NCBI RefSeq assembly: GCF_024521635.1
Contig: NW_026250414.1
Location: 806,001-870,000, forward strand
Origin: Tricharina praecox
Taxonomy: Eukaryota
Length of the DNA stretch: 64,000 bases
Reading direction: 5' to 3'
The translations under genes and the position numbers were made by a program. The stretch's first letter is position 1. Every line of letters starts with the position of its first letter. Below the pieces are notes generated by a model. It searched no databases and had not been told where the DNA came from. It worked only from the letters and a program-made list of their open reading frames with translations. Of this stretch, positions 31,796-60,484 are shown one piece after another.

Positions 31796-32054
31796 CGCGA
31801 CTGGTGGGGTGGTGGTGCTGAGAGTGGTGGTGGGGGGAAGGAGGTGAGGTGTTGTGGCGGTGTTGCTGCGGTGCCACAGGGATGACGCGGTTGGGAACTG
31901 GGTACTACAAACGTTTAAGACAGGTCGACGCAACGTAAACCGACCACCAACCTCAGCTCCATCGACAGCTACTCTACCGTCAACCACAACAACAACAGCA
32001 ACAGCAACAGCAACACATATCTTTCACATCCTCACTGTCAACACCCCACGAACG

Positions 32055-33285
32055 ATGCCACCACCACCGCCACCACCACCGCCCCCACCCCCACCACCAC
32101 CTCCCGGCGGCTTCGGAGGAGGCAAAGCGGCTGCCCCTTCAAGAGTATGTGTCGACCGCCCCAGTGCTACCAGAGCCCTCCGACAATACTAACGGACAGG
32201 TCCAGGGAGCGCTCAACGGCGACATCACGAAGGGGATCCGGCTGAAGAAGGCGCAAACGAACGATCGCAGCGCCCCGATAATCGATGCGAAGATCTCGGG
32301 CGGCGGAGGAGGAGGAGGCGTTGTGCAGATGGGAAAGCCGCCGGCTATTCCGGGTGCTCCGCCGATTCCAGGTGCGGCCGCTGCGGCGATGAGAGCGAGG
32401 AGTGATAGTGCCGGAGCATCCGTGAACCGTGGGAGGAGTAATAGTGAGACTACTGGGGGAGGAGGAGGAGGAGGGCTGGCCCCGGCTGCACAGCTGGGTG
32501 GATTATTTGCGGGCGGGATGCCACGACTGAGGAGTACGAGAGGCGGCGTGAATACTGGAGGTACTACATTCCTCTCTCCCACTATGAGGACCCTTTACTA
32601 GAGCTATAGCTAACCTACTCATACAGCGAACCGAGATTCCTCCTATATGTCCGACACGGAATCACCCCCACGAGCCCCGACAATCCCCACCCTCCGCGCG
32701 TCTCCCTCCGCGCCCAACGTCAACTCGCGCAAAACGCCCGCCCCGCCCCCTGGTCGTCCGCACTCCACCGCGCCGGTCCCACCACGCGCGCCTCCCCCAC
32801 CACCATCGCACATCCGCCCGCCACCCCCACCAAGCCGCAAGTCCCCCTCACCCACACCGCCCGCGCCCCCACCACCACGCGCCACCCCTCCACCCCCACC
32901 GCCCACAAACGGCGGCAACAGCAACGGCATATCCCTCCTGCAATCCGCGCTGAGCAAGCGCTCCGTCTCGCTCTCGCACACGCCGCCGCCGCCGCCGCCT
33001 CCACCCTCGGGGCCCAACCGCAACGCCCCGCCCCCTCCGCCACCGCCGCCTTCCGCGCCGGCTCCGCCTCCACCACCACCTCCCCCGCCGTCGGCTGCCT
33101 ACGGAAATTACTCCCTCAGCCCCGCGGTCGCCTCCGGCGCTCGCAAGATCGTCGTCGACGATAGCAGGTGGCGCTTTCAGCCCGAAGCGAGCTTTCCTGA
33201 ACCGAGGCCGTTTACTGGATGCAATAAGGCGTATAGGAGTGGTAGGGGGAGCAGTGTTCCGCTCGATTTGAGTAGTCTGGAGTAA
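32055..33285 (+). CDS. VRP1: Verprolin/WIP actin regulator; introns 32145-32199 and 32561-32626
   Basis: Poly-Pro N-terminus, WH2 ALNGDITKGIRLKKAQTNDRSAP, LGGLFAGGMPRLR, C-terminal DSRWRF..FPEPRPF..YRSGRGSSVPLDL. Confidence 0.9.
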
Positions 33286-38591: not shown

Positions 38592-41500
38592 TGTGGTTGT
38601 GTAGTTGTGTGGTGATGGTGATGGTGGGAAACTCGAGAGGAGAGGTGTCGTTGTCGTTGACGTTGTCGTTGTCGCGTTCGGCTCACGTTGGTTGGTTAAT
38701 TAGCTACTGCCAAGCTCGTGATCCCTGCATGACGCAGATCGGAGCAGCGTCTTGAGGCATCACTCGGATTTGCGCGTGAGTGAGTGTGCTGGATTTGGGA
38801 TTGCGTTGGGTATTTCGAAATTCCGGAGAGTGTCTGGACACTGCAGCCGGCTTAGGAAGTTCGCGAAGCAAGGTTTGGGAATGGAAGTGGGGGGGGGGGG
38901 TTGTTTCGCGTTGGACCCTCAATTCCACTCCGCTCAAGGATTACACGGCAAAGCCACGCGTACGGTTAAGGTAGTGCGAGATAGGTGTTAAGAAGTATCA
39001 TACCTGGATCAATCATATGGCAGAAAGGAAGTATCTTCTGTAGTTAACAAACTCAGAGAACCTATGAATTTGATTCACCACAACGCCCGGGGATGTGAAT
39101 CAATTATCATGGGTCCCAGAGGCCAGAAAACTCGCAGCCGCGCCGGCACCCCAGCCTATCATACGGTAAAACAGCAACCCCACCATCCCACCCGCTCGGA
39201 TGCATACGGCCCTCTCGACCGTGGTCCGTTAGACAACTATTTTTATGGACGATTTGTAACTTGTGAGGGGTGCACAACTGCACGAGGAGGCCGGAATTCT
39301 CCGTAGACGATGACGACACCGAGTGATCGATGGTCACGTGATGAGAATGAGTCAGCGGGACCAGCGAAAGGTTGTTGACCACGGTGAGAAGGGGGAGGGG
39401 ATGGGCATTGGGGACTCGGGAGGACAATAACATGGTCATATGACGGTGTGACCGGGTAGATAAGGAGTCTGGGGTTAGCTCGCGAATAACTATGGATCAA
39501 AATAAAAAGCGGGGTTAGACCGGCGGAGACTCGGAGTAGGAGGAGCCTTCGCTTGTATGCACACTCTGGTTTTGCGGAGAATTGAGATTGGCCGACGTAT
39601 GTATGGTCCGGCGTTTTGCAAGACTCATGTACCCTGTGGGGGCTGTGTGTTGGTGATGCATGGCGGATGCACTGAGTGGCAATCCTGCCTTGTGCGACCA
39701 TATGCTCCATGGCCCTTGGCATTCCTCCAGCCCTTCCTCGTCTTATCCTCACGGTACCACGAGCCCCTCCTCTCGGGACCCCGCATCTTTGCGAGCGGAT
39801 AGGAGTGCGCACATTCTTGTCAGTACATATTGGTAGCCATCGTGAGCCGTGATTCCCTTGTCAGTACTTGTGAGGAGGTGGCTGACCGCAACGATTGGAT
39901 ACCGCTGTTTTCCGTCTCCGGCGTGCATATCGGTGGTTGAAGATATCCTATCCCCTGCATGTTTCATCTCCGTAGGGGGATTGTACAGCGCTGAGCTTCT
40001 CGATTACCTCTCAATGTATCTGGCGATCATTGCGTCCACGTACCGGTTTTTGATTAATGATAGCTTCTGCCTTCTTGGATACCGCCTGAGAGCGTTTTTC
40101 CACCACTGGACGCTTTCTTTTTCTAGTGACACGGCTGCTGCCTGAAGTCTGGTAACTCGCGGTATCACTCCTAGCCACAACCACTGAGGACGCAATCTTC
40201 ACCTTTTCCGAGATGGAATGCCTCGGTGCTTGCACAAACCGGCTAGGGGTTTGGGATCACAATTTTTCTCCATGACCAGCAGCCAGCCGAGCACGAGTGA
40301 CGAGCTCAGTCAAGGGCAAGGCAGTATTGGGACCAGGCGTTCCGGCCAAAGTGGGTACTGGCGGTGCGCCCCTCCCACAGGCGCAGTCCGACTGCCGCGG
40401 CGAAGCGCGCAGTCTGAAACACCACACTTCCGGTGCATGCAGAGTACCGGTACGCTAAGGTCAGGGAGCATCCCATGTGCCACCACTTGAGACCATGCGA
40501 ACAAGCGGGATGGGTTCCGTCCGGTGTCCCGTCTGCGCAGTCGGAGACACGCAGCCACTGCAGTTCCTGTCCCTCCCGTTCGGAGGCCAAGCAAATTCTG
40601 ATACAATCTATTATCTGCTGATACCTAGCTTTACAGTACACAGCTCTCCACAGCTGGGTGTGTTTGGAATCAATTTATGCGGTGCAACAGAGTGAGCTCA
40701 TCATACCACTATGAATCACCGCCATCCCCCGTTGGCTACACTTGTGGCTTACATATCTACCTACATGGTACACCACAAACCACAAAACCACGAACCAACG
40801 ATTCTTCACCGACTCACCCAACACCTCAAAGTGTTCGCCAATCATGAACATTCGAATCCGATCCACAAAACGTGGCATTCTGCTCATTTTGAGATGAAAG
40901 AAAAATGGCGTAATAGGGAGTTGTGATCTACTCCATTTAAACCATCCTTCCCGTCACCACCGATCACAGGAGCGATGCTGTGGGAGCAATGGAGATTCAC
41001 ATGTTTGAGAATTCTGTTGTGCAATTAGGGCCCATTCAACCGCGAAGTAGAGCTGCAAAGCTGGAATCCACCACGCAAACTAGGGGTCCCTATCCGAGTT
41101 GTGAATGAAGTGTGGCTGGAATGCTGTTTGCTATCACGGTTTATGTTCGGGCCTCCGAAGGCGAAGTTCGCAAGAGCTCTGTTACATCATTTCCTCGGCA
41201 CCCTTGTCGCAACCCTTGAACCGACTCCGTGTGTTGATGTCTGGCGCACATTCCGCTGATTCGTCCATTGCAATCTATGCACATTGATGTCGCGGCGCTA
41301 AAGATCTGATTCGACGCATTCGAGCTCTGCAGCCTCGTACAGGCTGCAATAGCCGCCTGCATGACACCAGAGATCACGTCCACGGTCCGATGTGGTGATG
41401 ATGGTACTGTACATAGGTATCTTGATGGCAGCCTGACCGGCGAAGAATTGGGAAGGAGGCATCCCCCCAGGTGCACATTCCTCCCTTTTGTTGGCAACCA

Positions 41501-41710
41501 TGTTGGCAAACCAGAGGGCTGGCGGTCCGCTGCTGCTGCGGCATACGATGGGAATGAACCGTCCCCACACCGATCTACAACCTTCCCCGCTCTTGATGTT
41601 TTCTTGCGGTGTCCCTCTGATTGATCGTCATAACCCCCAAAAACAAAGTCAAGTTCACGTCTTCGATATCTCTTGGACAAACAAACGAAAAATCTATTCA
41701 TCCAACGGTT

Positions 41711-44700
41711 ATGGATTGCTTCCACATCGTCCTCCAAAATGGCCTATCCAGTATTCGGTACAATCGTAGCCTCCATGCTAAAATCTCATCCCACGCTGCA
41801 CGGATAGGCACTTTCCTGGCCGACGAGTCGGCCCGAACTGATTTCCTCACCGATTTCAACGATTATACAAGCCACCTGTTGGACTTCCTCGCGTTCAACG
41901 AGAAAATGCACGCCGAACTCGGCCGTCGTACGGGCTCGCAGAGCATATCACGTGAGGTGCTCGAGTTGGTCTGTTCTATGCTTTCGTACCCCGAGTTTGA
42001 TCTTGCAGACGCGGATACGATGGACAAGTTGGTCGTTGAGGCCCTCAAACATGCCTTACCGTTGCAGCCCGCTGCACTTAAGGAGCTCGCCACCAAGTTG
42101 GCCGAGAAACCGGGGCTTCTGGAACGCGTTGCGTCGGCGCAAGAAGGAGCGGAAGCTATCCGCAGCCTCTTCTCGGTGCATTTTGTCAACTCCATGCCGT
42201 CGATATCCAATGCTTGGGCGCAGAAGTTGGTTGGCCTGTGTTCCGTCTGCACCGGAAGCCCCATCTGCCACGGAATCGCGACTGAGGTCGAGAAGTGGCG
42301 TGCGTTGACGGAAATCATCGCGGCGCTAGAAACTCATCAACGTGAGATACAGGAAGCCCCGCAGCCGCATTACGCTCGAGCTCCTACCGCCGCGGTGGTG
42401 ATCCGGAGGCTTGATGCAGATGAAAAGAGGTCGTTTTCTGCGGCCAGGAGAAGATCTTCGGTCCTCGAGCCCGAAATCCCGCCGCTCCCGGAACGCGTGG
42501 CGATGATGCTGGATGGACTGCACCTGCAACAGCCAAGGTCCTCGCGCGCCATAGCGGTGCTCTTGGAGCAGGTGCGCGGCGTCGAGATGCCCGCCATCGT
42601 TCAGGCGCTTCTACCGACGTTTCCATGCCGTCCGTGTTATGATCTCTCCAAGGATCCGAAAGCATTGGTGGAGAAGGATAAGCGGATCATGAGAGCCCGT
42701 GCTGACAGTGGATTCTGCTTCGAAAACCCTACAAAAGAGGAGACATTGTTTGGGGAAATGATTGGGCTATGGAAGGTGCTGCTGTCTGCGGCAGCACTTA
42801 AAGATATTCAGAAGCAGATGCTCGGTGGTGTGTGATCCCCTTTCTATTCCTGGGGGGTATCATAGCAGAACTGATGAACTTTTGGATAGGTCACAAGGAG
42901 GTACTTGAAGCCCGACTGCGCATATTGGCTTCCGGAGAGTGGAAGACTGGAAAGCTTTCGAATCTCCCAGGGACCCCCGCTCAGCGGAAATACCTTGATC
43001 CACCACTTCTGGAGGCCGAGGTTGGAAGGCAGCTTCGAATACTTTGGCAGGTGGGTTCCGGGCCAACCGAGGACGGCGGATACAAGCAGCATATCAAGAG
43101 TTCGTAACCCCACTTTTTGCCTCCGGCCAGATGATAGAATAGCTAAGTGGTGTATCTTAGTTTGGAGGGTCGTTAAACCTGTGGATGTAAGATATTAAAC
43201 CCTCAAGTCTTCAAACGGGGTAACTGACGAAATCTTAGGTTTCCAAAGCCATCGACCATGTGGTCATGGTGTGGAGAACGAGGATTCTACAGCCCGAAGA
43301 TGACCCGATCTTGTCGAAGTTTCCTACGTTGGACGAAGCATCCGGCATTTACATACCCATAGAATTGCCTATTCTATACAACTCGCAGAGAAGGCCTTCA
43401 ATCGATACCTACCCATCGATCTCGATTGATGACCGGAGAGGACTCGAAGACTACAGTCAGTCCATACTATCCGCTTGGGATGTTTTGATTCTGACATCCG
43501 TGGCAGACAAATTCTTCGAGTTCACAAAGCCGGTCATGGACAGTTTTCTGACAAACAGTGCGGACGCCGAATTTCCGTTTGATACATCTCCGGAGGAAAT
43601 CGAGGTCATCAAGCACAGAGATTCCGGGACGCTCATCATGGGCCGAAGCGGAACAGGAAAAACGACCTGCCTAGTTCAGAAGCTGGTACGGAATTACACG
43701 GCTCGGAAGCTCATTATCGGGCAAGCCCCACCTCGGCAGGTGAGTCGAACGGTTTCTCTAAAGTGTCCATCATTGCTGATTCGGATACGACGCATAGATT
43801 CTCCTCACCCGCTCAAAGCTTCTCGTCGAGAAGCTTAAGATATACACGAAGCGGCTGGTCGAATCACAGCTCTCCAAGGCGATCACAACGCAGGCCCAAT
43901 CCGACGATTTTACCTTGGACGAGGAGAGTGTGATGTTTTCCAAGACGATTGGTAGTCTTGGGGATGATGATTTCCCTTTGGTGTGCACATTCGATCAGCT
44001 ATTGAGATTGCTGTAAGCTATCTAGTCTTTTCTCCTGTCGGCAATGAACTCGGGCTAATACTTTCCTCCAGTGAGAATACAGTAGAGTTCGTGCACTCTG
44101 CTCCTTTCCGGGAGATGCCCTTGCTTACTTTCGTCCTTTGCGCAGATTCTCCAATCGTCAGAAGTTTCGCGAAGACAAAGCTAAACCGGAGATTTCCGAT
44201 GTGGCCGGACACTATGTGCGGAGATCGCAAGTCGTTGACTTTAAACTTTTCAAGTCCGAGTACTGGGGACAGTTCCCGTCCAGCTTTTCTCGGCACTATG
44301 AGCCTGGGCTGGTTTTCGCCGAGATCTTGGGAGTGATCAAAGGATCGATATCCAATGACGGCGAGCTCGGATGTCTTTCACGTCACGAATACCTTGCCCT
44401 CAGCCGCAAGAAGGCACCTACATTCTCGCCCGAGGAACGAGAAGATGTCTATGACATCTACCTGCGATACGAAAGCAAGAAAGCCCGACACGGGGATCGG
44501 GACGGGATAGACCGGGTGGCCTCGCTGCTCAAGTTCCTACAGACGGCGGAACCGGATTTCAAGCGGACGATGGAAACCTTCTTCGAGGAGATCTATGTTG
44601 ACGAGGTGCAGGATCAGCGATGCATAGACATCACCTTACTCCTCAAGCTCGCTAAGAACCCGACTGGAGTCCACTTCGCGGGTGACTCGGCGCAATGCAT

Positions 44701-47700
44701 CTCGAGGGACTCGACGTTCCGCTTCAGCGATGTCAAGGCTATGTTTTACAATCAGTTCAAGCCGCTGGCTGAGGCGACAAACAATGACAGTCTCGTCCAT
44801 CCAAAGTTGTTCCGGCTCAATAAGAACTTCAGATCTCACCAGGGAATCATTTCCCTCGCTTCGTTCGTTATGGAGCTGTTGTACAAAGGTGCGTCACAGT
44901 AGTCAGGGGCTTTTGCTTCTTCACTGTTTCTCTGTGTTTCATTGGATTGAGGTTTTTTTTTTCTTTTTTCAATCGCATGGTTTTTGTGGCGCGCGACTAC
45001 CACGAGTGACATAATGTGATGCCAATGCTGATATCTTTAGGTTTCCCCCAAACGGTCGACAGAATGGAAGAAGAAAGGGGCCAATACGATGGTTCCATAC
45101 CCACCATGTTCGTTGGCTTGGGTTCGGAAGTGCTTGCGCAGCGACTTGTCGGCCTGGCCGGTGTGTTTGAGAAAGTGTCGGATTTCGGAGCAGAACAGGT
45201 TATCCTCGTTCGAGACGACAGCATAAAGAAAGTAGTCGAGCGCACGCTCGGCGAAGACACAGCGCTGGTGCTCAGCATTCTTGACAGCAAGGGTATGGAG
45301 TTTGACGACGTGTTCCTGCTCGACTTTTTCTCTTCCAGCCCTACTCAGGCCGGATTGAGAACCTTGAAGGATATTCTGGTTCCCGGCAGTAACCGGGCGG
45401 AGAACGAGAGGAACGCACTGCTTTGCTCCGAGCTCAAGGTATGGACCCGGTTGTGACTTACTATAGAGTCAATACTGATCTGTGACCTTTCTCAGCATCT
45501 TTACGTTGCAATCACAAGACCTCGGATTCAGCTATGGATCCTCGAAAGCTCCCCCGAAGCCGCGGAGCCTATCGTCAAGTTATTAGCGAGGGACGGCGCG
45601 AAGCCACTCGTGGATGTTGTGCGGAGAAATGATCCAGACGTGAAGGAAAAGCTGAAGATGATGAAGCCTGCGGTTTCGAGTGATCCCAAAAAGTTTTCCG
45701 AGAAAGGTTACCAGTTTCTGCAAAGAGGATTATACAAAGAGGTATGAAAGTAGATAGAATTCCAACATATTTGCTGAGTCCTTAATTAATGCCGGTACGG
45801 TAGGCAAGCTTTTGCTTCCGCAGGGCAAAGGACGAGCGGGGACAAACCATCTCCAGAGCACATCTGAAGATGGAGGAGGGACGAATTCATCGAGGAGAGG
45901 GCGCTACCAACAAGTTCCTTGAGCTCTTTAGGGAGGCTGTAAAGCTTTTCCGAGAGGCTTCACAGTTAGGAAATGCCGCTTTTTGTCTTGAAGATATGAG
46001 CTACATCGAGGAAGCAGGAGGTGGGGTTCTACCGCTTACTAGCTCCTCCGTGGTCTGAAAAAAACTAATCGGTGTTGCAGACGTTTGGGTTGAAATTGGA
46101 CGCCACGACAAGGCGGCTTCACTGTACAAGAAATGCCGAGCATGGCGTAAAGCGTTTCAGTGCTACGATACGCTCGGATCCTATGCCGAAGCGGCGGCAG
46201 CGCTCCGTCAGGGAGAGCTATTCAACACACTCATTCGGTATCTCCGAGCCAATCGAGAACACCTGGAGCCATCGCAGGTGGCTGCGTACAGCAAGCTTTG
46301 CACTATTCTCTTGGCCCAAGGTCGGATAAAAGAGGACCACCAGGAATTCGTTATCGACTCCCTCGGGTCCGATCGAGAAAAGGAGGAATTCTTACGCAAG
46401 TTTCGCCTCGGGAAACAACTGGTCAAAGTCCTAGTCAAGACCCAGAATTACGGAGAGGCATTCCGCGAGCACATATCAGACGGCAGAATTGCAGATGCGT
46501 TGGAACTGGGGTTGAAGCATTTCCACAACTATTCAAGTATTGAATTGAAGGATCTTATGCAGCCTTTACGCTTCACAGAATTCGAACGGTTTCTTAATTT
46601 ATTGCACCGAGAACCCGGCGAGGAGGCACAATCTCGGCCGTACGATATGTTGCCGGAACTTCCCTGGTCTATTACTAATGCACTATCGGAATGGGCTTCC
46701 TTACGTGAGAAACTTCGTATTAGCACCTTGTGGGGCGTCTTCTCCAGCCTGGACGACGGCCTTCAAAAGGATATACTTGCCATCTTAGTTGGTCATCCTT
46801 CATCTCATCATGTTCATCTACTGACGCGATATTGCCAGATGGTTGTTAACTGGCGCGAGTTGGACTTGTTGCGAGGCTGTGAAGATCTCGCTCTTACTGA
46901 CCTGCGCGGGGTTGTCCAAGCCTTAATTACGACGGTCAATATCTGGGGATCAAATCGAGGCGAGAATCACGAACTTCCGCTGTCCACCGCGATTGTCATG
47001 GGTGCTTTCCCCATTCCGGATAAGCAGGAGACATGGCTCTTGCAGTATTCCCCCCTTCAAAAAGGCACGCCGGGTCCGTCACTCCACAAGTCGGAGGATC
47101 TTTCAAACAGAATCCAGAATGAAATTCTGCTGCGGATGTTGGAACTCTTCCGACGTCTGGAACAAGTTGCGAGGAATATATGGGAGCCGTTCTCCAAGGA
47201 TCTCTGCACCAAGCACATATCGAGAGGTTTGTTCTTCTACAGTCGGTCGCAGAATCTTCAAAGCTCACACTTGGCTTAGGAAATTGCGAAAGCGGGGCCC
47301 TTTGCTATAAAAGACATGTTCCGCCGAGCAGTGTGGAATGCAAGTCCAGAATCGAGGTATGAATCGCGGTCTCGATGGAAATTAACAGATGCGCTGAGCT
47401 AATGCGATTCTTTAAAAGGGTCTGCAAATGATGTCTTCCTTGGTTTGCAGCTTCCGTATGGTATATTTCCGGACCAAAAAATACAGGATGACTGGCAACG
47501 AAGAAGTCCTAACACTTTTCAGCAAGAACCATCTTCCAACCAGTCAGTTAATACTTTTTTTTTTTTTTTTTTTTCTTTTTGGGGGGGGGGGGGGGGGGGG
47601 GGGGTTCTGAGAAACTCTGACGAGTCTTAGAGCGCTATTGGCTGGAGTCTCTATTGCAGGAGACAATATTTAGATCAGCCATTCAACACGATTGCGACGC

Positions 47701-49801
47701 GACAAAAAACGCAATGTCCAACATCGCATCAGGGGGAAGAGAATATACGGCAATATTTGTTGGCGTCGAGGAATTGCTGTTTCATCGTTTGCGGAAGGAT
47801 AGGGAGTGGTACCTGAGGAATGACCTATCCTCAATTTTGGAGCAACGACAACTCTGCGAAAGTCTCGGTATGTGGTCCCTTCTCGACGATGCCCCGCTCG
47901 CAGAGAATGTATCATAAGAACATATGTTACGCAACGATGAGATTAGGCAACATGTCACATGTGCAGTCTATTGAAAATATGTTACTTTAATGGACGGGGT
48001 TGAGCTAACCGAGATAATTGATATTAGGCGAGAGAGTCGCAAAGCGATTTGAGACATACACAAAGCTGATACGCTATAGGTCGGATGTGCGTGTCAAATT
48101 GGATCCGCAACAGATAAATCAGAATGCAGTGTACGACGCATACCAAAGCCTCAAGGATGCAATCTTTAATGCCAAGCGCAACGAGGCCCATGGCGCTGTA
48201 AGTCACAAATATAGCATTCTTCATGCACATCGCTGATTCTGAATAGAAACTCAACTTGAGCTTGGGCCTGGGAAAACTCGAAACCCTCTCTGTGAATGAC
48301 TTTACCTGCTTCCACTCTATCATTGGAATGTTTGAGCGGCTAGCAGCTTTTCTAGTAGGCCCAGCACTCGAAAACTGACTATAACCGACATGGCTGATTG
48401 AAGCAGATGCTATGGACCTGCCAGTCTGCATGCGTTCTCCCGGCTTCATGGATCAAGATTCACCTGCCCGTCCTCATAACCCATCCGCATCAGCTCACGC
48501 GGGGACAACCAGGACGGGGAATCTATGGAGAATGCCTGGTTGAATTGCTCATATCTCTCATCAAATTGATAGAGCGCCTACAACTAGAGGATTCGTTCTA
48601 CTTCTCGTACGGCACCCGAAGATATATCAAGGCCGAAGCGTTTGGGCAAGGAATCCAAGAACGAAATCGGAACCTTCTTGCTATTGCAGTCTTCCATCTT
48701 GCGACTATGGAGGCTCCACCCCCACACTCGGCCGATGTCATCAGGGGAGTGCAGAAGGTATGGCGGATCTCCGCAACTACTATCATGCTAGGTTAGTGGA
48801 GTTGACGAGATCAATAGCTTTTCTGGAATCGCAATCTCTTCGCCGCCGACTTTCAAAATCGTCCACCGATCTCCATGCTTGAACCACTGCATTCGTCGTT
48901 CGCGCGATATGGAGGCAAAGACAGTTTAGTCATCGTCACAATCAAAGAGAAAGTTCCGCCCGCCGCTTTCAACCCCCTGATCATTCGCAAAGTTCCTACG
49001 TCCACTCTCGCCTCGCTGATCGAGTCTAGGAAGTCGCAGCCGGTAACTTCGGGACGCCAGGCCGGAGATTCCGACGAGAAATGGGAGGATGCAGCGGTTA
49101 GGAAAGCAGTGAGGAAGCTGCAGGCGTTTTGGCGCAGACGTCGCCCGTTCCTGCATTCGTACCGAGCGTCGCTCGAGCGCCCACGCGGCGAGGAATCCGC
49201 TTTTGTCTTCGAGAATATCATCAAGCCCAGCCTCAGAGCCATCCGCGATGCGCAACTGCAGGAGCTCAAACTCGCACGCACGAGAGAGCTGCATGAGCAC
49301 TCGTCCGAGGATGAGGATGAGGATGAGGATGAGGATGAGGATGAGGATGAGGATGAGGATGAGGATGAGGAGGAGCAAGGCAAAGCCGATATGGAAGAAC
49401 CCTCCCTGCCAGTGTCTCGCTTCGTACCGAGAATGCTTTGCAAGACCTTGATCCTCGATACCGTTGGCATCGACTTCTACGTCGCAGTTGGGACGCTCCG
49501 CGGTGAAGCCGAAGCCGCGAATGCGCTCTCCCTAGGCGTCCTTACAAACAACAGGATGCAGACATCCGCCGTCGAGGAGCTGATCGAAAGCGACGACATG
49601 GCGGAGTTGAACAGAATCGTTAAGATAGTTTCCGGCGAGATGCTGGGAGTGGAGAAGGTTGGGAAGATGTATGCCGACCCGCAGCGGCATTGGCGGGACC
49701 TGAGACGGGCGTTTGCCAAGGAGATGGAGGAACTCGAGAAAATGCGGGTCAGATTGATGGGGATCGTGCAAACGCTTGAGAGGATGTTGGCTGGGTTGTG
49801 A
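41711..49801 (+). CDS. TRANK1-like SF1 (UvrD-type) helicase with TPR-like repeats, CCCH finger and IQ-like motif; ~17 introns; start codon uncertain
   Basis: Walker A GRSGTGKT, TFDQLL, Walker B IYVDEVQD, AGDSAQCI, LNKNFRSHQGI, SKGMEFDDV, LYVAITRPR; helical repeats downstream. Canonical introns (e.g. 42828-42889, 43100-43160, 43187-43238, 43740-43797, 44889-45040, 45439-45495, 47227-47279) preserve the frame to TGA 49799-49801. Confidence 0.85.
49307..49369 (+). repeat. (GAGGAT)n encoding a poly-(Glu-Asp) tract in the helicase C-terminus
   Basis: Direct reading, ~10 copies. Confidence 0.9.
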
Positions 49802-50548
49802 TGCCACGAGTGGGGGTTTTCATGTCGGTGGTTCTGGGTATTCTATGGGGGTTGATTTTGTACTCAGTTCTGGGTGCTTCCGTCGGTTATTTTGGGTATT
49901 CTGTGGGGTTTTATATTTCATTTAGTTTTGGGTGCGCCACTCACGCCCTACGGAAGCTAGGTAGAGTGGTTTCAAATGGAGCCGTCCATGAAGTGATCAT
50001 GTGACATCACTCGCCCACCACCATTCGACGCAAGAGCACTGCGATGTTATTATTGGTGGAAGTGGAATGAACAGTCTTCTGTCCTTGTCGTACAGGCCTG
50101 GCAGGCCATGTGCCAAATCAAACTTTCCCCGTCGATACATACGGCGGTGACGCGTGAACCGGATGTGAACATGAATGAGCGAAGGTATAATATGCCCGCG
50201 CTGGAGCTAAAAAGGAACCATACGCCCTCGTCGGTATTATATACCTTCGTCGGTACGCATTACCCTCACCAGCCACAGCAAAATTTCTGCATTTTATTCG
50301 TCGATGCAACGAAGACAATGCAACATGACAGAAAGTGGGGTAGAAAAGAGAGAACCCCGAGATATTGTAATACTATCATCGAAATATTTTTACTGAGGAT
50401 TTGCTTGCATTGAATACCTGTCTAATGGCTAATTTGTCTCCAGTCGCGCGTTGTGACAAGCGCAGAGCAGATGAGTGGAATTTGCGCTTGAGTCATAAAA
50501 GTTACTGACTCGCTATGCGCACACCTAGTGACTTGTTATCGAGATGGA

Positions 50549-50611
50549 TTGACTCGTCACTAAAATAAGTTGACCTTCCACTAAATTAAATTGACTCGTC
50601 ACTGAAATACC
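50549..50611. repeat. 21-bp degenerate tandem triplet TTGACTCGTCACTAAAATAAG
   Basis: Copies at 50549, 50570, 50591. Confidence 0.7.
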
Positions 50612-52421
50612 AACCAAAATTTTACTTCTCAACCGATGGAACGCATAACCCACGAAAAAATCGTTATAAAAGTTGGGAAATCGGCACCATAGCGAGCTTC
50701 AGTGCTTCAATAAAATAGAAAAGCATTCTCTTTCTCTCTGTCGAACTCTTGTTGCCCAGCCGACTGCTTCAAAAAACTTGGTTTTGTACGCATAATTAAT
50801 GTGGCGGTGCCGTGGGCATCGCTTACCGACGAGGGTATATAATACCGTATTATCTTACATGAGAGGTATGAGGGACAGCGAGCAGAGGCAGGACCAAGAC
50901 CATCTCTCGAATGAATTGTTTGATTCAACGACGCATCCATCCGAGCCTGTTGCATCAGGACGGAATGTTGTGGGGGAGCCGGGCCGACGGAGTCTAGACA
51001 GCCTCAGCCGTTCGAGTACATAACCTTTCTCGGTTGGGTCGACGGCGATGGCGAAGCCCGGTTCCTGATCGGCGGCACGGGTGATCACCACCAATGATCC
51101 TACGGTACGTCGGCAAGTACTATTTTGGTCTGTACTTACTAGAAGTCCGTTCAACGTCGACGGGCCGACCTTGGCGCGGTACATACAATCCCCACTCGGG
51201 AGACACCCTGCTTGCTGTTTTAGCCTTCAGGATAAATGCATTTATTTCCCCTTGCCTTGGAATCGGTAGGTAGGAAAGCAAACCAACAAATCCATGTTAC
51301 TCAAAAAGCGCAGAGTGACTCGATGCGCGTATAGGGTATGGGACCGGGGTAAAGAACCGCGCTGAGTGGGCGCTGAGTGAGTGCGATCATGTACGACAGT
51401 GAGATAGACGGCGAGCGACGTCTGCGGTCAAGTATCCAGTTAACTCCATATCCCGCCTGGGGATTGCGCTCCGTACATATGTTCTGAGTGGGAGGAATAA
51501 TAGACAGGACAGCACCTGTAGCACAGCCAGGCAGCCTGGCTTGATCCTACCTAGGCAGCACAGCGAGCTTTAACCAATCATGCGGCGAGGTTCTCATTCG
51601 AGATCCGACAGCTGTGCGTCGCGGACGATGTCGGCATGGCGCAAAAAATGCGTGCCATTCGCCGAGTGATCGGTAGCGGGCAAAAACCGAATAGAAGAAG
51701 AACCCCCCTACCGAACACTCTTATCATACAACTAGCAGCTAGAGGGGCAATGAGGTTTTGCGTCCGTAGTTTTTCTGTGTACATATGTACCCGCTAGAAG
51801 CTGGAACGAATAGAGAACGGTCTAGGTAGTATTTCCGCCGTCGCCTCGAGGCTCGAGATCCAACTGGTAGAAATTGTGATCGTGTGAATACTAGTAGGTG
51901 CATACTACCCTGATGAGTTCGCACATACTATTTACGAGGACCTGACATTTCTACTGAGCACGAACTGAGATGCTGGACGGATTACAACCAATAAGACCCC
52001 AGTTGTGCACAGTCGTCCATGTCCTGAGATGCTCATTTGTACTGGATATCCGGATGCAAGAAACGCCAAGGCCACCTCACCTGTATCCATTGATCGGGGA
52101 AAGGTGCGGCATGCTATTATGTAAGCCTCGTGAACCTGAAAACTATGCAGGTCGAGTGGAGCTGGTGAATTATGAATTCGGCTGATCCGTCCGGTATGCT
52201 ACATATGACCCGCATCATAAACAGAACGCGCACTGGCGCAAGAATAAGGAAATAAAAGGTCTAACGTGTGTATATAATCCCACGGTCGATATCTAGTAGA
52301 GCACTCGTCTGTTACCGAGCCTTCCCACTCACAATTCCGCTTATAAAACCCCGTCGCCTGCTGCTCTTATATTGACTATCGCCGATCAAGAAAAACTTAA
52401 TAAGGACACGGCGGACGTCCG

Positions 52422-53332
52422 ATGGACGGCAACACGATAATCGCCGAAATGAACCACGAACATATTGCACATGGAGGGGTAAGATGATCGAAACAAGCTC
52501 CGCTCTGCCTCCACCTTATACTAACCTAGCCCATAGTATGGTGAGAATGGTTCTGCTTGGGTCCCATTGAATAGAGCGCCTGGCACCTCGATGGGGTCCG
52601 TGGCTTTCGGGGTGGTTCACTATCCAGAATGCCAGCACAGGGCCGTGGACTCACGTGAGTTGGGCATGCTTCGTTATCGGTGTGTATCTATATCGTATCG
52701 ATCCGGCAATTTCGGTAGGAAAACTGACAGCCTTAGGTGTCCCGGCGAGGGTCATCGACAGCACTATACTCGGTATAACGATGAGCTGGGGCCGCCGTCC
52801 GGTGCCGGATACCAGAGCAATCACGGACCCTTTCCCGGAGCGGCGGTGGACGTCTCCTACTACGGTGGACAATATCCAGTTAGGCATGATACCAGGTGAG
52901 TTACTAGCCCGTGAAGATTGGACAGCTCAGGATGGAAGCTTACTCGTTTGCCGTGCAGATATCAGCTTGCCCCTGATGAGCATAACGCCAACGTCGTCGC
53001 CGTCGAATACTCTGCCCCCGCAGAAGCAAGGTAAGTTTTGCACCCATGATTCGGAATGGCTCTTGTTGTATGTACGTTGACCCTGACTGCGCCCCAGGAG
53101 CCCGCAGAACACTGGCCGACGGGATGTTCCCCGCTGCCCTTACTGCCACGAGCCGGTCGTACAACTTAGGCGGCACATCATGACAGTGCATCCTCAAACG
53201 CTGCCGACAGAGCCTCAGAAGTACTTCTGCGGGGTGAAAGGTTGCCCCAGGACTAAAAGTTTCAATCGAAAGGATAATCGCGACCAACATTTGAGAACAG
53301 TCCATAAGATAGAACCTTTGGTTCGCGAGTAG
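52422..53332 (+). CDS. Two-finger C2H2 zinc-finger protein (multi-exon; start uncertain, 52422 or 52629)
   Basis: Last exon encodes PRCPYCHEPVVQLRRHIMTVH and YFCGVKGCPRTKSFNRKDNRDQHLRTVH. Phase-2 introns at 52896-52958 and 53031-53097 link upstream exons. Confidence 0.7.
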
Positions 53333-55695
53333 GGAGGTTGTTCAACGATGAGTCCGTGGACCGGAGGAGGAGGAGGAGGAGGAGGACGAGGATGCGATCT
53401 TCTGGTCGGGGGAGGATTTGTTGTCCCGGAGTGTAGTCCTTACAGGAAAACATTGGCCGTTTCCATTGAAGTTTCGATCGAGTGATTGTGAGCTAAGAGG
53501 ATTGGGACCCCGGGAGTAGATGACAGTGACCAACACTCATTATAAGAATGAGAAGTTGCGGCTCAGCCTGCTGCTCATGTCCCGGAGTTTGCGTCGGAGT
53601 GCGGAGAAGTTGCCAGCAGCACATCAAGCTCACTGTGCCTTTACTACTCCAAAAGCACAATTAATCTTAGAAGCACATCCACCGAGGCCAATTCAAAAAT
53701 TCATCAAATCAGCGAGGGACACATGGGTGATTATCCCTCTGAGATCGTGGCTGTTGCGGTCAGTCTTACCAAGTTTACTCCAGCTAGGACAGCTTGCGTG
53801 AAGACTGTTACAAACCGTGTCGGGCGACTCGTGCCCAGCGCACCACATTATTGCACAATATTTATCTCGCATGCGTAGTAGCATGCGTAGTATTGATCTC
53901 CGGAGGTTGCATTATGTCAAACGATCAGGGGCTCCTCTCATGTGAGTTTTCAGAGATTTTGAAGACAATGAACCGCTGGATCTTCGCGGGAGACCACAGA
54001 CCTGTGGTTGCCCTCCTAGCAGCTCGGGGCCTACCCCTAGACCTACGGCGTTTGTTTTCTAAATCGGCTTAGACGACCATCCATCAATAAGGAGATTACA
54101 ACGTCAACTTTTCAGATGAACGAGGTGGCGGCCGCCCGCTGGCAAGGAGGTTTGCGGTTTGTTGTTATGGGCAGCAGATCTGTTCGGTGGCAGTGGGTTT
54201 CATCATAAATCCACCGGATTAGATCATTCGTCTACTGATTAGCTTTAGGCAACGAGTATACCTCCTGAGGAGCCCTCATGGCGGCCCATTTTTTACTCAG
54301 TGCTTGCCGTCGTTTCCTTACCGCAGTCCAGGTTGACCCCATTCCGCCCCGTCATAGGAATTTGTCCTCCCCGTCCTACAGTGCCTTGATTTCATTCAGG
54401 TCTGGCGTTCCCTGCGCTCTCAACCTTCGGTCGTGTGGGCTCGCGGACCTGACCAGGCTGTGAAAGGGAGATAAGAGACGAATCGAAATAAGGTAACGCT
54501 CAAAAATCGCATTGTGTAGTCCAAAGATTATGCACGGGTACCTCCCGGCAATGCCTGTTGCTGGCTTCATATGTATGATGGAAACTGTGGATGGGGTCAG
54601 TATTTCTCGAGTCATCGACACCATTAGGTTTGATTCGATCCGGCGTCGCTCATGACTCCTCAGGGTTGCATATTATTCCTGGTCTTCAGGTCCGTGTGCA
54701 GCACTGCCTACAAGGCTGCAATCCCCCAAGATTTTTGGGCGGGGTTTATTGTTGGCCGAGTCTGTGCCGTGTTCTGCATCCGGCGCAGTTGCGGGGAGAA
54801 GGTCATGGGCGGCGATAACTGGTGAGTTTTTCTTCCTCGAGCCTCGAGGGAAATTTCGGTCCAATCACTCGGGACGTCGAGGCTCGGGCCCAAAAAGAAA
54901 AATCTTTTCCAGTATAGCCATTTGATACTAGAAATGTGCTTTTCGATAACTTCATGCCCCCACTCCATGCCGCTCCGAGTTTCCTTGCTTCGTTATCTTT
55001 TGTCCATTCCCTCCGCACGATCATCTAGAATGATGAGAATTGTACAAGAAGACAGCTTTCATCGCCCTGTCTTCACCTCTGGACTGCTCGCTCATCTGTT
55101 CTTCTTCCCTTGGTATCCCTCTACGGATAATATCCCCAGTCTAGGTATCCGATACTAGTGAACCCAAAGCAGTTCAATGAACATTGCGAGCCATCATTGA
55201 TGAGATCGCCGCGGACCTACCACGAGGAAAAAAAAGGATCGTATACTCGAATTGAAGTGTGATACAGGTTCGAATGAATGCGTCGAGGATCAGTGACGAC
55301 GGGCATTCTCCGACATCACTCGCGTTTTAAACTTCACTGGTATACATCGGTCCACCGCCCGACGACAGCGAGGCCCTCAAGGAATCATCCAATTACTTGC
55401 CAAACGCGAACCCACGCCCGTAAGAGAATGGAGAAAGCAGAAAGACCACAAACGGATGAAGAGCTGGGGCCACTCATTGGTATTTCTGTCCTGTACACCC
55501 AGTGTCGAGCATTCTCATCCCGACAGTACCAGCCGATCTGTCAATTTGGCTATCGGTGGATGCCCTTGCAATACAAGAGCCATGGACGCCCCGCAAGAGT
55601 TTAATCTGAAGCTCAAGCTCAGCGTTCCAACTTCCTTCACGGAAAAAGTCCCTTTCAAGTTTCAACCCCGTTGGCACCCAGCGTAAACGTTAAAC

Positions 55696-55737
55696 AAGCT
55701 CAAGCTCAAGCTCAAGCTCAAGCTCAAGCTCAAGCTC
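55696..55737. repeat. (AAGCTC)n hexamer repeat
   Basis: Direct reading, ~7 copies. Confidence 0.9.
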
Positions 55738-58700
55738 CTCAAGAAAATCTGGTTTCCTCCTATTCGCTAGGTTTAGAGCACTAATGTACTGCAGTTCTTA
55801 TAAAGTCCACCGTTGGTCCGAGCAGTCTTGTGGAAACTTCATCCAAACACACGACCTGGCAGCATCCGATACCGATGTTAAGCATTATCCCATAACGATC
55901 ATTGGAATGTGCCTCATCAAAATCCCCCGCCCGGTCGCCAGGCGCGGTAGTAGTAGCATTGGCGGACCCCCGCCGGACCCTGAGCGGTGGAACGCCGAAC
56001 TACCGCCGGAGAACACCCCCAACACCCCCAACACCCACGAAACCGAACGGGGCATCCCAGACATATCGTCGCCGGAGTACATTCCCACGACCTCCAGGAT
56101 TGTGATGCGGCGTGACGAAATATCCGAGCCGCCCGTGCCGCGGCGCGCCACGGCCGGCACCCAGCGCAGCGGTGTGGCTGCCCAGCCAGGAGTTTCTATC
56201 TGCAATAGTAGGCAACCAACAACCGAGAAAAGCGGCTGAGCTGGAGAACTAATACTCCGAAACAGTGGGCTGTTGCTGGTGGGTTTTCATGTGTGCACTC
56301 GGGATAAGATTCACTGTGAGTACTTCCCCAGGCTGCCATACAGCAAGGCCTCAAGCTCTCCAGAAGGCAGGCGAAATTTGCTGATCACGAGTGCCTTGCG
56401 ACAGATTGGCCTCGTCTGTATCGTGATTAGCAGGAATGGGCAAATTACGCTGTAGAGATTCCTACATTCCGCAACGGAATACCATTTATCCGCAGGGCAA
56501 CTCCATCTAACAGAATATGGAATGCGTAACCCATTCTGCGCGTACATGAACGTGTATTCGGCAGGATCGAGGGTTTACAAGGCGGGTTCTAATTCCCCAG
56601 TAGGGTGTATCTTACAGCTACATAGAAGATTCGCAAGCCGATTTTATGCGTATAGAAAAAGTGTTTCGCGAAATAATGATGTTCAGGTTTTTATGTGATG
56701 AGCGGATGACTCGATAGAATTGCTCGAGAGGATGACAGGTTAATTCACCACATTGATGAAGACGCGGACGAGTCGACAAGGCAAATCGCCGAGGCGGACA
56801 GGAGTCAGGCTCGGCTGTATCGGTACTATCGACCGCGAAAGTGAAGGCGATGTGCTGTGTCTTGCAAATGGTGTGTTGTGGGAGGGCCGAGGGGATACCG
56901 CTCTCGTCGACGCTGTGCGGATGGAACTACATGGAGGGAGACGACAGAAGGCTGAGGCGGCAGTAGGCTGATGAAACCTTGATGGCTATTTCACGGCAGT
57001 ATTAATATCGGATGAAACCACGCACTCATTCAAATGACGATCAGGATATAGAGGAGGATAGCCTCAGCCCTCTCAACGATCGAAGTTCTCATTCGCTAAC
57101 TCGCCTATGAAAAATCATCGTTGCCACTTCACCTTGGCAGCCGGAAAGTGTGTAGGACCGCCGAGCTACTAGCCTGAGTCGTGCGGGATGACCGGGGGAG
57201 GCCTCGGTTGGCAGCGCACAGGGGTTTCTATTCCGCTTAATCGGAGGTTACATACCAGCTGTGGACGCTAAATATATCGGCTATTAGTCGCGCCAGTCGC
57301 GCCAGTCGCGCAACCTCGACGGTGGTAGGCGAACTGCTATGTACCAGGTTAAAAGACTCCCAAAAGCGGGCAGACAATATGCGAGGTACGAGTAGAATAG
57401 AATTCTTTCTTCCGGCCCCAGAGATTATGCTAATGTTTTTGCTAATATTAAGGTAACAGGTGAGGTCTAGTGCCTTGCGGATCTCCATCCATGTACAAGT
57501 CTGGGCTCGCTTTCTCTCGGTGGTGCTTCGCTTCAGGTAGCTAGACGGGGTCTGACTGCACCGGTGAGATGGGAGTGTGGGGAGGAACAGCCAGAATGAC
57601 CCTGATTCCTCAACCCAGTGCATTCATCCTCCTCCCCCTCCTCCTCCTCCTGTCGCCTTCTTTCCGTTTGCTTCTCTTCCCGTTCCCTCAACCACCACTC
57701 CGACGCTCACTGGCTGCGACTTCCTTAGCGGCCTCCGGGGTTCGCATTCCCTCAGCAGCGGTGGCGAGAAAGCCCAGGATGGCCTGGCGATAAATTGTAG
57801 AATGGCCTGGCGAAGACCAAAGGAGGGTGTGATGGCGAAGGAGTGGTCCTCACCCACTTGGAGTGACAGCATATGGAGCAGCAACTAAACGTGGTGACAC
57901 CAGCCTTATCCCTCATGTGTCTACCGCTTGATCGCCAAAGCTTCTTAATGCCTCAGTAACTTCCCAGGCTGGGACCAAAAAAACGGGTTTCAAAAAATAT
58001 GCAGTCGGACGGCTTGGGTGGACAGAGACCTTTGTAAGAGCTATCTTCGGAAAACGCTCGCTTCCAACATCGCCATCGTCGCCCTTCGCCTTTTGCTTGT
58101 GACGGTCAAACGCACGTTTAACAGCAGCAATAAGACACTCCATCGGACCGCTATCCGCTGGAGATAGAGTTTGAATAGCTTAGTTGCCATGGCGGAAATG
58201 GAAGAGTGCCATTGTATGAACGAAGCGGCCTGCTCCCTCTGCGTTGGTCTGCTGGCTGACATGCTAGCTTGCGTAATTTGCAGTTGTATGTGCTGGCTAT
58301 GTAGGAGCAAGACCTGGCATACATTGACCTGAACCATGGACCAATGAGGAGGCCATTAGCAGCCCAGTCAGTCGTTGTTTACAGGACAGTCTGTAAGTGA
58401 ACAGAAGCAGGTATTCACAGCTAATTATAACCAAAAATCCGCCCCCTCGTGAGACTCCGAAAGGGAGTGCATCATCATTCAGGTCAACAATGTCCACAGA
58501 TCAGAGTAATGCATTTTATTGACGACGAAATTTGAGTTCTCCCCGGCCCGACCATTCGTGGGGTTCTCCGCTTGAACCCGTAGAACATATCTTTCATACC
58601 GATCATGCCCACCTCCAAAATCTCTTGAAACATCAACAATTTTCTTCTTATATCCTGCCGACTCCGCTTTTCCAGACTACTGCCAATTAAACACAACCGG

Positions 58701-58907
58701 GAATGACACGGCTGAGCAGAATGAACACAGCACCACACGACTACCGACTCAACGTCGGCTCTGAAGACTTCCATTGCAGTGTAAGAGTATTAAGAAATCT
58801 CCGAAGCGACGCCTTAATAACTTTACTCTTAGCGTGACGAAGCGAGCTTGAAAGCAACCACGGATGCAACATACACGCCGGAGCTCAGATCCACTGCCAC
58901 CCAGACT

Positions 58908-60484
58908 ATGAATGTCGCAGTTTTAATGTCGGCAAAAGAGAGAGGCGGCTGCGCCATTCGTGCAGATGCTGTGATAAGCGATGTAGCAGGCAGTTTTTCA
59001 TCGGCGCAGGAGGACGAGCTATTCCAACTTTCGCATGGTGGACCCGTGCTGCAGACGTCCTGCAGTTCGTCGGCGCCGAAGACAAAGGATTATTTCCGAT
59101 TCCCCCTCGATGAAGTGTCGAACATCGCGACAGCTTTTGTGGCCTTCGAGGAAGAGTATTTTGTATCGGCGCGAAGCCAGATGCCACACGCCCGGAGCAT
59201 GCACATGTCGTCGGGGGTGGAAGGTTTTGGCCAGTCTCCTCACGGTGAAGCGTCGAGTACTTTAGCAGATCCTGTGGCTTGGGAGGAGTATTTCGTATCA
59301 GCACAAAGCGAGGCAACACACGCACGGAGCATGCACACGACTTCGCAGGGCTGGAGCATGGACATGGACGGCGGCGGCCTGTTCCCTCACGGTGAAGCGT
59401 CGGGTACTTCAGCAAACACTGTCGTCTCGGAGGAGTCTTTCGCATCGGCGCATGCTAGGAGCGTGGTATCGGAGGTGGAAGGTTGTGGCCAGTCCCTTTA
59501 TGGTGAGACGTCGAGCGCTTCGGCCCATCTTGCGGCTTCGGAAGAAGAGTATTTCGCGTCGGCTCACGTCTGGAGCATGGACATGGAAGGCGGCGGCCTG
59601 TTCCCTCACGGTGAAGCGTCGGGTACTTCAGCAAACACTGTCGTCTCGGAGGAGTCTTTCGCATCGGCGCATGCTAGGAGCGTGGTATCGGAGGTGGAAG
59701 GTTGTGGCCAGTCCCTTTATGGTGAGACGTCGAGAGCTTCGGCCCATCTTGCGGCTTCGGAGGAAGAGTATTTCGCGTCGTCTCACGTCTGGAGCATGGA
59801 CATGGAAGGCGGCGGCCTGTTCCCTCACGGTGAAGCGTCGGGTACTTCGGCTGCACCGCCGCATCAAACCGACACTGCCAGGTCGCTCGCGGAGGGGCAT
59901 TTGGAAGCGCCAAAGCTATTGGGTTCCTCGATTCATCGTATCGATAAAATTGTTTCCGAAGCGGAGGCAAGCAATGCATCCTATCCAAGATTTCAGCGCA
60001 CTAATACCGGGTGAGTTTGTGATATTGCCGAAACCTCTAATTCAAAGACCAGGCAGCTGAGATAGAGATAATTACATAGAAATATTGTCAGGTTTCAATC
60101 CCCTAGGGTTCGACGTACTGCTGGTCATTCGACCGCCTCCCTCACTGTCCCCGCAGCCGTCCTGTAAGCTGATACATGGAAGTTCGGAGTGACCATCATG
60201 ATCCCGAGGCTGATTTCGACGTGGTTTAGAAAATTAGCGACCAAGAAATTGTGCCGCCTTTGCGGTGGATCCTTCCAGCAGCTTCAGCGGCATATCAAGA
60301 CGCTTCATCCCAAGCCCTGTCGTCCCCACCGGTCCGGTTCTTTTGCAAGGTGAAAGGTTGCGCCAGGGCCAAAAGCTTCAGTCGAAAGGATAACCTCGCC
60401 CAACATCTGAGGTTAGTCCATGGTATGTCGATACCGCCGAGACAATATTCGTCGGCGAATAATAGCGACGCGGTGGTTCAGTAA
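58908..60484 (+). pseudogene. Second C2H2 paralog with internal tandem repeats; apparent 1-bp deletion between fingers (pseudogene or assembly error)
   Basis: Long acidic repeat exon to ~60010 with introns after it. Finger 1 LCRLCGGSFQQLQRHIKTLH and finger 2 FFCKVKGCARAKSFSRKDNLAQHLRLVH lie in different frames. Confidence 0.6.
59352..59848 (+). repeat. 219-bp (73-aa) coding tandem repeat, ~2.3 near-identical copies, with more diverged half-units upstream
   Basis: TGGAGCATGGACATGGA recurs at 59352, 59571, 59790. Confidence 0.9.

Follow-up and report, generated by a model that had tools for sequence, protein, structure and literature searches.

The locus at positions 41711-49801 (+ strand) of the window analysed here, a 64,000-nucleotide stretch of contig NW_026250414.1 from the fungus Tricharina praecox, raises the question of what a single large protein does with a toxin-like domain placed directly before a helicase. 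A first-pass annotation, made from the letters alone, had described one intact spliced protein with a RelE/ParE-like domain, a UvrD-type superfamily 1 (SF1) helicase, TPR repeats and a CCCH finger, and had read it as a one-gene immune system with a toxic effector. We find that the locus is, with hardly any doubt, a real gene of the TRANK1 family (TPR and ankyrin repeat-containing protein 1, lupus brain antigen 1 homologue), and structure modelling of a close homologue indicates that its pre-helicase domain very probably adopts the fold of RelE/ParE toxins. The toxic effector, and with it translation shut-off or cell death, is not supported, as the domain has neither a conserved His, Arg, Glu or Tyr nor a sequence match to RelE/ParE.

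Gene structure and domain order

Between 41.6 and 49.8 kb the stop-to-stop open reading frames (ORFs) of the + strand form a chain of fragments in shifting frames, which is the picture of an intron-rich gene. Transcript contigs from two public runs, X1 and X2, belonging to two separate studies, were mapped onto the window. Together the runs contain 76% of the words sampled from the locus, and contigs of 6401 nt (X1) and 7232 nt (X2) jointly cover positions 41627-49932. Note that RNA is not on record for either run (both are marked 'RNA?'); we take them as transcript-derived because their contigs lack the introns. Every one of the 15 contig joints listed is GT..AG, one of them enclosing a 15-nt micro-exon, and the spliced locus is a single intact gene of 20 exons and 19 GT..AG introns (49-160 nt each, 1308 nt in total). 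Its coding sequence of 6783 nt runs from the ATG at 41711 to the stop at 49799-49801 and encodes 2260 residues with zero internal stops; no contig breaks the frame. The contigs extend past the stop to 49905 and 49932, giving a 3' untranslated region (UTR).

Three introns (47543-47630, 48355-48406 and 48758-48817) were placed by splice logic and the contig's own coordinates. The first has the donor GTCAGT and is required for the frame. The contig coordinates demand two more introns totalling 112 nt between 48355 and 48817, and out of 36 frame-keeping intron pairs the other two form the sole pair with this sum. All junctions checked, including these three and the micro-exon, align without gaps to six full-length homologues, and the protein is collinear from end to end with proteins of about 2200 residues from Trichophaea, Wilcoxina and Pyronema (P0085, P0084, P0083, P0086, P0087). 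Compared with P0085 of Trichophaea hybrida (2206 residues), identity is 59% over residues 1-2073 and 47% over residues 2134-2260. Junction alignments and collinearity confirm that the locus encodes one intact protein, as first described. The exons are as follows.

41711..49801, +, whole coding region: spliced contigs of the two runs, collinear with P0085 and five other full-length homologues
41711..42827, +, exon 1, residues 1-373, start codon at 41711: donor joint 42828; start aligns to residue 1 of P0085, P0084, P0083 and P0004
42890..43099, +, exon 2, residues 373-443, core of the predicted RelE-fold domain: joints 42828-42889 and 43100-43160
43161..43186, +, exon 3, 26 nt: listed contig joints
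43239..43455, +, exon 4: listed contig joints, next intron 43456-43506
43507..43739, +, exon 5, Walker A motif GRSGTGKTT at 43641-43667: contig joints, motif search
43798..44012, +, exon 6: contig joints
44072..44086, +, exon 7, 15-nt micro-exon: 15 letters inside joint 44012>44146 in both runs; aligns to homologues
44146..44888, +, exon 8, helicase motifs II, III and IV: contig joints, Pfam PF00580 at E 2.5e-9
45041..45438, +, exon 9, helicase motif V: contig joints, motif search
45496..45741, +, exon 10, helicase motif VI: contig joints, motif search
45804..46020, +, exon 11: contig joints
46081..46787, +, exon 12, TPR-like region: contig joints, weak Pfam matches
46839..47226, +, exon 13, first Cys of the CCCH finger at its end: contig joints, motif search
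47280..47356, +, exon 14, remainder of the CCCH finger: contig joints, motif search
47419..47542, +, exon 15: acceptor from contig, donor 47543 inferred (GTCAGT); junction aligns to homologues
47631..47867, +, exon 16: acceptor 47630 inferred (poly-T/poly-G intron); aligns to homologues
48028..48197, +, exon 17: contig joints
48247..48354, +, exon 18: acceptor from contig, donor 48355 inferred
48407..48757, +, exon 19: both ends inferred from the 112-nt constraint; junctions align to homologues
48818..49801, +, exon 20, with the IQ-like motif, an acidic run and the stop at 49799-49801: contig piece starting at 48816

From its N-terminus the protein carries a helical Cys/His domain, the predicted RelE/ParE-fold domain, the helicase core, a TPR-like region, the CCCH finger and a long helical tail with an IQ-like motif.

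41711..42700, +, N-terminal all-helical domain, residues 1-330: AlphaFold2 (AF2) model of the P0085 homologue, predicted local distance difference test (pLDDT) score of about 90
42239-42271 (C..H) and 42620-42637 (FPCxxC), +, conserved Cys/His of the N-terminal domain: homologue alignment
42758..43289, +, predicted RelE/ParE-fold domain, residues ~350-468, exons 1 to 4: AF2 model of P0085 residues 329-469, fold matches
43572..45576, +, UvrD-like SF1 helicase core, residues 546-1085, motifs I to VI intact: Pfam and motifs
45679..47174, +, TPR-like helical region, residues ~1120-1560: sub-threshold TPR matches; above cut-off in the chytrid P0163
47205..47317, +, CCCH zinc finger C-x8-C-x5-C-x3-H, residues 1571-1590, interrupted by intron 47227-47279: pattern; PF00642 in P0087
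49109-49153, +, IQ-like motif in exon 20: motif search

The helicase is the best-defined part. All UvrD motifs from I to VI were located, motif I reading GRSGTGKTT and motif II YVDEVQD, and exon 8 scores 37.7 bits with Pfam PF00580 (cut-off 23); the homologues score above the cut-off for both PF00580 and PF13361.

A few details of splicing were recorded beside the model. The micro-exon of five codons at 44072-44086 has a 59-nt intron on either side, is present in the contigs of both runs and is kept in the homologous proteins. Intron 15 (47543-47630) holds a long poly-T directly followed by a long poly-G, at about 47546-47614. Two introns of 51 nt, 43456-43506 and 46788-46838, lack an in-frame stop and are spliced out in the contigs; retention of either would insert 17 residues with the frame kept.

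The pre-helicase domain and its family

The domain preceding the helicase was modelled with AF2 on residues 329-469 of P0085, whose identity to the window here is 68%, from a 26-row alignment. The model has a pLDDT of 86.7 and a predicted template modelling score (pTM) of 0.81, and its topology is a strand, two helices, three strands forming an antiparallel sheet, and a long helix. In a Foldseek search of the PDB the top matches were RelE, ParE, YafQ, YoeB and Cami1, with target-normalised template modelling scores of 0.65-0.74. Structural alignment of these matches with VIA-align yielded 33 chains at Z >=8, the best being 4lsy_A (Z 9.7, root-mean-square deviation 2.2 Å, 86 of 88 residues). 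A second model, of P0085 residues 1-475, was compared with 48,161 PDB representatives without Foldseek; ranks 1-20 were all taken by toxins of the RelE/ParE superfamily (Z 9.6-7.2), and the first unrelated chain, an importin, aligned on the N-terminal domain. As evidenced by this unbiased scan, the assignment is well supported, and the RelE/ParE-like domain first proposed from the letters stands at the level of the modelled fold.

At the level of sequence the relationship to the toxins vanishes. The domain found no match at E <=10 in a profile search of PDB sequences and none when the E. coli K-12 chromosome was scanned; one of 26 domain members matched Pfam ParE_toxin, at E 0.14 only, and alignment to E. 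coli RelE with hhalign gave a probability of 0.3%. The ESM Atlas, used for leads only, placed the domain with a eukaryotic cluster (0.92) and a ParE_like cluster (0.83). Thus the likeness to RelE/ParE toxins lies in a fold that spans the whole length of the toxin (4lsy_A), whereas the window domain shows no sequence-level similarity, has no conserved His, Arg, Glu or Tyr, has an additional long C-terminal helix in its model (residues 115-137), and is part of a 2260-residue eukaryotic protein where the toxins are free proteins of about 90 residues.

The family to which this protein belongs emerged from searches with the helicase exon. Pezizomycete proteins came out on top; farther out stood a 'TRNK1-like' protein of the clam Mya (E 2.9e-27) and one from Rhizoctonia that bears the name TPR and ankyrin repeat-containing protein 1. 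We collected 120 animal TRANK1 or TRANK1-like proteins, and the profile of the fungal pre-helicase domain matched 113 of them at E <=1e-3 and 112 at E <=1e-5. In the animal proteins the start of the domain lies a median of 243 residues (range 196-268) ahead of Walker A, as it does in the window. By BLASTP the gene model aligned to the bat TRANK1 P0302 over the helicase (residues 708-1285, E 1.5e-58, 28% identity) and, separately, over the RelE-fold region (residues 354-587, E 1.2e-5). With the domain matched in nearly all of the animal proteins at a constant distance from Walker A, we assign this fungal gene to the TRANK1 family, as the term TRANK1-like in the first-pass annotation had implied; it is no new system.

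A search of 1.84 billion cluster representatives recovered the domain in 426 at E <=1e-3. Nineteen of the 20 representatives looked up were fungal (chytrids, Endogonales, Glomeromycota, Pezizomycetes, Penicillium and lichen fungi); the twentieth, a sea-urchin repeat protein matched through 30 short stretches, is probably spurious. By these matches the unit of RelE-fold domain and helicase is ancestral to animals and fungi, reaching from chytrids to Ascomycota and to animal TRANK1. The domain was carried by 36 of the 87 relatives first collected. The idea that the remaining 51 bear swapped N-terminal effectors was rejected, as 44 of them are merely N-terminally truncated records. Architecture is otherwise uniform, with Sel1 repeats gained in some members, and the RelE-fold domain is, from the sequences compared, a constant component of TRANK1 proteins in both animals and fungi and no swappable effector. 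It is also under constraint: aligned with P0085, identity is 77% in the helicase, 68% in the RelE-fold domain, 58% in the TPR-like region and 50% in the N-terminal domain, so that by this comparison it is the best-conserved part after the helicase.

One family member departs from this plan. P0184 from the chytrid Nowakowskiella (2894 residues) has an N-terminal NADAR domain at 20-159 (E 3.6e-21) ahead of its toxin-fold domain at 878-996, the only clear added enzyme-like N-terminal module among the members examined.

With animal TRANK1 the window protein shares the UvrD-like core, the pre-helicase domain with its spacing to Walker A, and a helical or TPR region after the helicase. The animal proteins, however, carry ankyrin families PF12796 and PF00023, whereas ankyrin repeats were found neither in the window protein nor in its fungal homologues (no ankyrin family on the window exons or on the 35 family proteins scanned by Pfam, 33 of them fungal). 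In addition, the N-terminus of the window protein is a 330-residue helical Cys/His domain, a CCCH finger and a distinct C-terminal tail are gained, the protein is about 700 residues shorter, and the Pezizomycete family is multi-copy. In the full-text literature no paper was found that joins TRANK1 with RelE, and those naming TRANK1 and ParE appeared unrelated by title. Searches for TRANK1 with a UvrD helicase domain found none, those for TRANK1 in fungi nothing relevant, and those for RelE, UvrD and TPR in fungi none on this combination among those listed, as judged by title or start of abstract. A RelE/ParE fold for the conserved pre-helicase domain of TRANK1 was thus not met in print.

Activity and proposed role

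The fold raises the possibility of an active effector: a ribosome-dependent mRNA endonuclease or toxin, restrained in the resting protein and freed when helicase, TPR and CCCH modules sense foreign nucleic acid, with translation shut-off or cell death as an abortive-infection-like immunity from a single gene. In its favour, the modelled fold equals that of the RelE, YoeB, YafQ and HigB toxins; it is also the fold of the RelE-like domain in the CRISPR-linked protein Cami1, whose structure was determined on the 70S ribosome. The domain is constrained second only to the helicase, the family is expanded and its vertebrate member is interferon-induced. Residue conservation tells otherwise. Across 118 aligned copies of the domain the well-kept positions are mainly Gly, Trp, Leu, Ile, Ala and Pro, with His, Arg, Glu and Tyr absent from the conserved columns. 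The well-kept polar residues are Ser (in 100 of the 118 copies), Gln (109), Asp (91), a second Gln (115) and Lys/Arg (94); all of these but Asp count for an active site, and the basic columns 47 and 108 are only partly kept as Lys/Arg. In a hand alignment to E. coli RelE, whose catalytic residues we take to be K52, K54, R81 and Y87, all four fall on variable columns, and the position of R61, compared as well, is Arg in 39 of the 118. At three of the family's better-kept polar positions the window's own clade has another residue (G for D, W for Q, R for Y). An antitoxin-like partner is not evident, although no systematic search for one was made, and the failed sequence searches against RelE/ParE point the same way. 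A RelE-type RNase is unlikely here, given the missing conserved residues and the variable catalytic positions of the hand alignment; we consider the active effector as a whole quite improbable, and the fold is probably used non-catalytically.

ParE toxins require no catalytic residues, so that a fold used in their manner, binding and poisoning a type II topoisomerase beside a helicase that works on DNA, would fit both the ParE toxins among the fold matches and the DNA preference of most UvrD-type helicases. The top matches are however of the RelE, YafQ, YoeB and HigB types rather than ParE, neither the PDB nor the Pfam search showed similarity to ParE sequences, the CCCH finger speaks for RNA, and nothing ties the family to topoisomerases. 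This makes a ParE-like action very improbable.

Copy number bears on the remaining explanations. In a quickly built tree of 43 rows from the helicase region (support from the Shimodaira-Hasegawa-like approximate likelihood ratio test, SH-aLRT) the window protein is sister to Trichophaea P0085 (support 99), and both fall within a Pyronemataceae clade (100) that comprises at least three paralogue lineages. The tree also contains species-level clusters: Tuber aestivum and Choiromyces have five copies apiece. Within the window there is a single copy. The Choiromyces copies P0058, P0062, P0067, P0069 and P0070 are all listed on contigs of one size, 1,081,568, and the T. aestivum copies P0061, P0065, P0071 and P0091 on contigs of one size, 175,375. 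Shared contig size and clustering by species suggest tandem arrays of paralogues, an expansion in tandem of a family that is multi-copy in Pezizomycetes; strict single-copy conservation is not seen.

A transposon-derived helicase gene that multiplied through movement might account for several copies per genome, some of them on contigs of one listed size. The gene has 19 spliceosomal introns, however, and exon-sized fragments in other fungi indicate shared intron positions. The paralogues are old (45-59% identical), the window has only one copy, Pfam scans of exons and homologues revealed no transposase, integrase or Rep domain, and orthologues exist in animals. Selfish origin is therefore improbable in the extreme.

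A more serious contender is a housekeeping helicase, serving DNA repair, recombination or replication in the manner of UvrD, Srs2 or Fbh1, or routine RNA processing, in which RelE-fold, TPR and CCCH modules are merely structural or bind partners and no conflict is involved. The UvrD type of the core, the age and wide spread of the family across fungi and animals, a uniform rather than modular architecture, the 19 introns and the ordinary upstream neighbours all fit such a role. Against it stand the strong variation in copy number among related genera with tandem clusters, the fast divergence of orthologues (59% identity to the nearest genus) and, as weak evidence, the lack of a named yeast or Sordariomycete member among the matches listed. 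Vertebrate TRANK1 furthermore behaves as an interferon-stimulated gene: it is listed in a table of a human screen for interferon-stimulated genes (PMC6880163), and it is among the top induced genes, at a log2 fold change of +4.72, after viral-mimic stimulation of crocodile cells (PMC5702629). Expansion and interferon data argue against a plain single-copy housekeeping gene, and we regard the housekeeping role as unlikely, if less so than the alternatives weighed above.

The reading that we favour, at about even confidence, is that of an ATP-driven surveillance helicase for nucleic acid, probably RNA, with the RelE/ParE fold as a non-catalytic docking or regulatory module. The protein would act as a motor or sensor on nucleic acid, most likely on RNA or RNA-protein complexes. 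The RelE-fold module, its nuclease action probably lost, would dock or regulate beside helicase domain 1A and perhaps touch ribosomes or RNA, while the TPR-like region and the tail would probably bind partners. RNA as the ligand is suggested by the CCCH finger, as such fingers usually bind RNA. A role in surveillance or defence, for which mycovirus, transposon or non-self RNA would be the target, is put forward tentatively; given the tandem expansion of the family and the response of vertebrate TRANK1 to interferon, it is likelier than housekeeping. Support for an immune role is indirect and comes from these two observations only; the role is plausible but unproven.

Several points weigh against this reading. 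The fold evidence comes from a model of the Trichophaea homologue and not from the window's own spliced protein, and a shared fold proves no function. In the window's protein no TPR family exceeds its Pfam cut-off. The hand alignment to RelE takes its anchor, YRLVYQV against xRILWQV, from an hhalign match of 7 columns whose probability is negligible, and the domain of animal TRANK1 retains more charged residues. Since active sites of the RelE family vary between subfamilies, a new catalytic set (S359, Q426, Q439, K442) is possible. UvrD-like helicases usually act on DNA, which makes the RNA substrate a guess. Paralogues also multiply in families without immune roles, the vertebrate response to interferon need not apply to fungi, and a function for any family member is a plausible proposal drawn from sequence and model.

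Known defence proteins resemble the window protein in part. The likeness to NLR receptors noted in the first-pass annotation holds for the succession of N-terminal module, NTPase and helical repeats, and fungal NLR-like (STAND) receptors share the lineage-specific expansion as well; it fails for the NTPase, which is an SF1 helicase and not NACHT/NB-ARC, and for the N-module, which is fixed. Pfam searches for STAND families on exons and homologues gave weak, sub-cut-off P-loop matches only. The PADLOC models of GajB, from the bacterial Gabija system, match with E 1e-8 to 3e-13 by generic UvrD similarity. This match covers part of the helicase core, the window has no GajA partner and the flanking domains are others, and it merely reflects the UvrD-like nature of both proteins.

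Animal TRANK1 is a large, conserved, interferon-induced gene, and fungi have expressed, intact and often multi-copy members of the family. Contact with ribosomes or RNA through the toxin fold is an idea testable in these tractable organisms; status as an immune system is not shown. Human TRANK1 is linked to bipolar disorder. In a bolder and rather improbable extension, the TRANK1 family from chytrids to humans would comprise ancient opisthokont defence helicases that sense nucleic acid, built around a captured RelE/ParE module, with the fungal copies restricting mycoviruses or non-self RNA; the module may then still work on ribosomes or mRNA by docking, stalling or cleaving. If this were true, a tractable fungus might reveal the function of human TRANK1.

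Accessory regions and genomic surroundings

The TPR repeats first proposed appear in the window as a TPR-like region: exon 12 gave eight weak Pfam matches, six of which are TPR families (E 0.017-0.31), every one below cut-off, whereas in the chytrid family member P0163 TPR_2 (42.4 bits) and TPR_1 (38.6 bits) exceed theirs at the same place. A search of PDB sequences with the TPR-like exon returned 0 matches. The CCCH finger is borne out, with its pattern C-x8-C-x5-C-x3-H straddling the junction of exons 13 and 14 in the spliced model and PF00642 (zf-CCCH) above cut-off in the Pyronema homologue P0087 (21.5 bits against 20.5). In the finger region the gene models of P0083, P0084 and P0086 carry insertions and that of P0085 lacks the finger, exactly at the position of the window intron 47227-47279; this is probably annotation noise from a mis-annotated intron.

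The IQ-like motif is kept among paralogues, yet its Pfam score is below cut-off, and leads from the ESM Atlas for the last exon gave IQ-bearing clusters at 0.80. In the same exon a GAN-repeat at 49307-49375 encodes a run of 23 Asp/Glu residues. As all six full-length homologues are gapped there, we take it as a recent expansion in this lineage.

In the N-terminal domain C183 is invariant and C304 and C307 are at least 90% conserved in the homologue alignment. The model of P0085 residues 1-475 (pTM 0.66) joins this domain to the RelE-fold domain by a low-confidence linker. Compared with the PDB, the N-terminal domain of the P0085 model found alpha-solenoid-like matches only (Z <=7.1), which are uninformative because the fold is helical.

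Genes of ordinary appearance lie upstream of the locus, at 2343-33285.

2343-4208, -, Leo1
4740-6926, +, LIM
10255-11703, +, amino-acid permease
14400-15581, +, HAD hydrolase
23899-24990, +, ankyrin repeats
31939-32601, +, WH2

Immediately before the gene, the X2 contig begins at 40796, about 900 nt upstream of the ATG, the X1 gene contig begins at 41627, and X1 has a separate low-depth contig at 40776-41315. The signal at 40776-41710 may come from a long 5' UTR, from a transcript lying upstream or from read-through. An antisense ORF at 41141-41743 matched no Pfam family.

Of the gene-poor DNA first described, the part beyond the locus was checked on six ORFs at 50-60 kb, none of which matches Pfam. 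Few long ORFs occur at 50000-64000, transcript depth falls beyond 49977, and the GC content is 0.47-0.53 there against 0.53-0.62 upstream.

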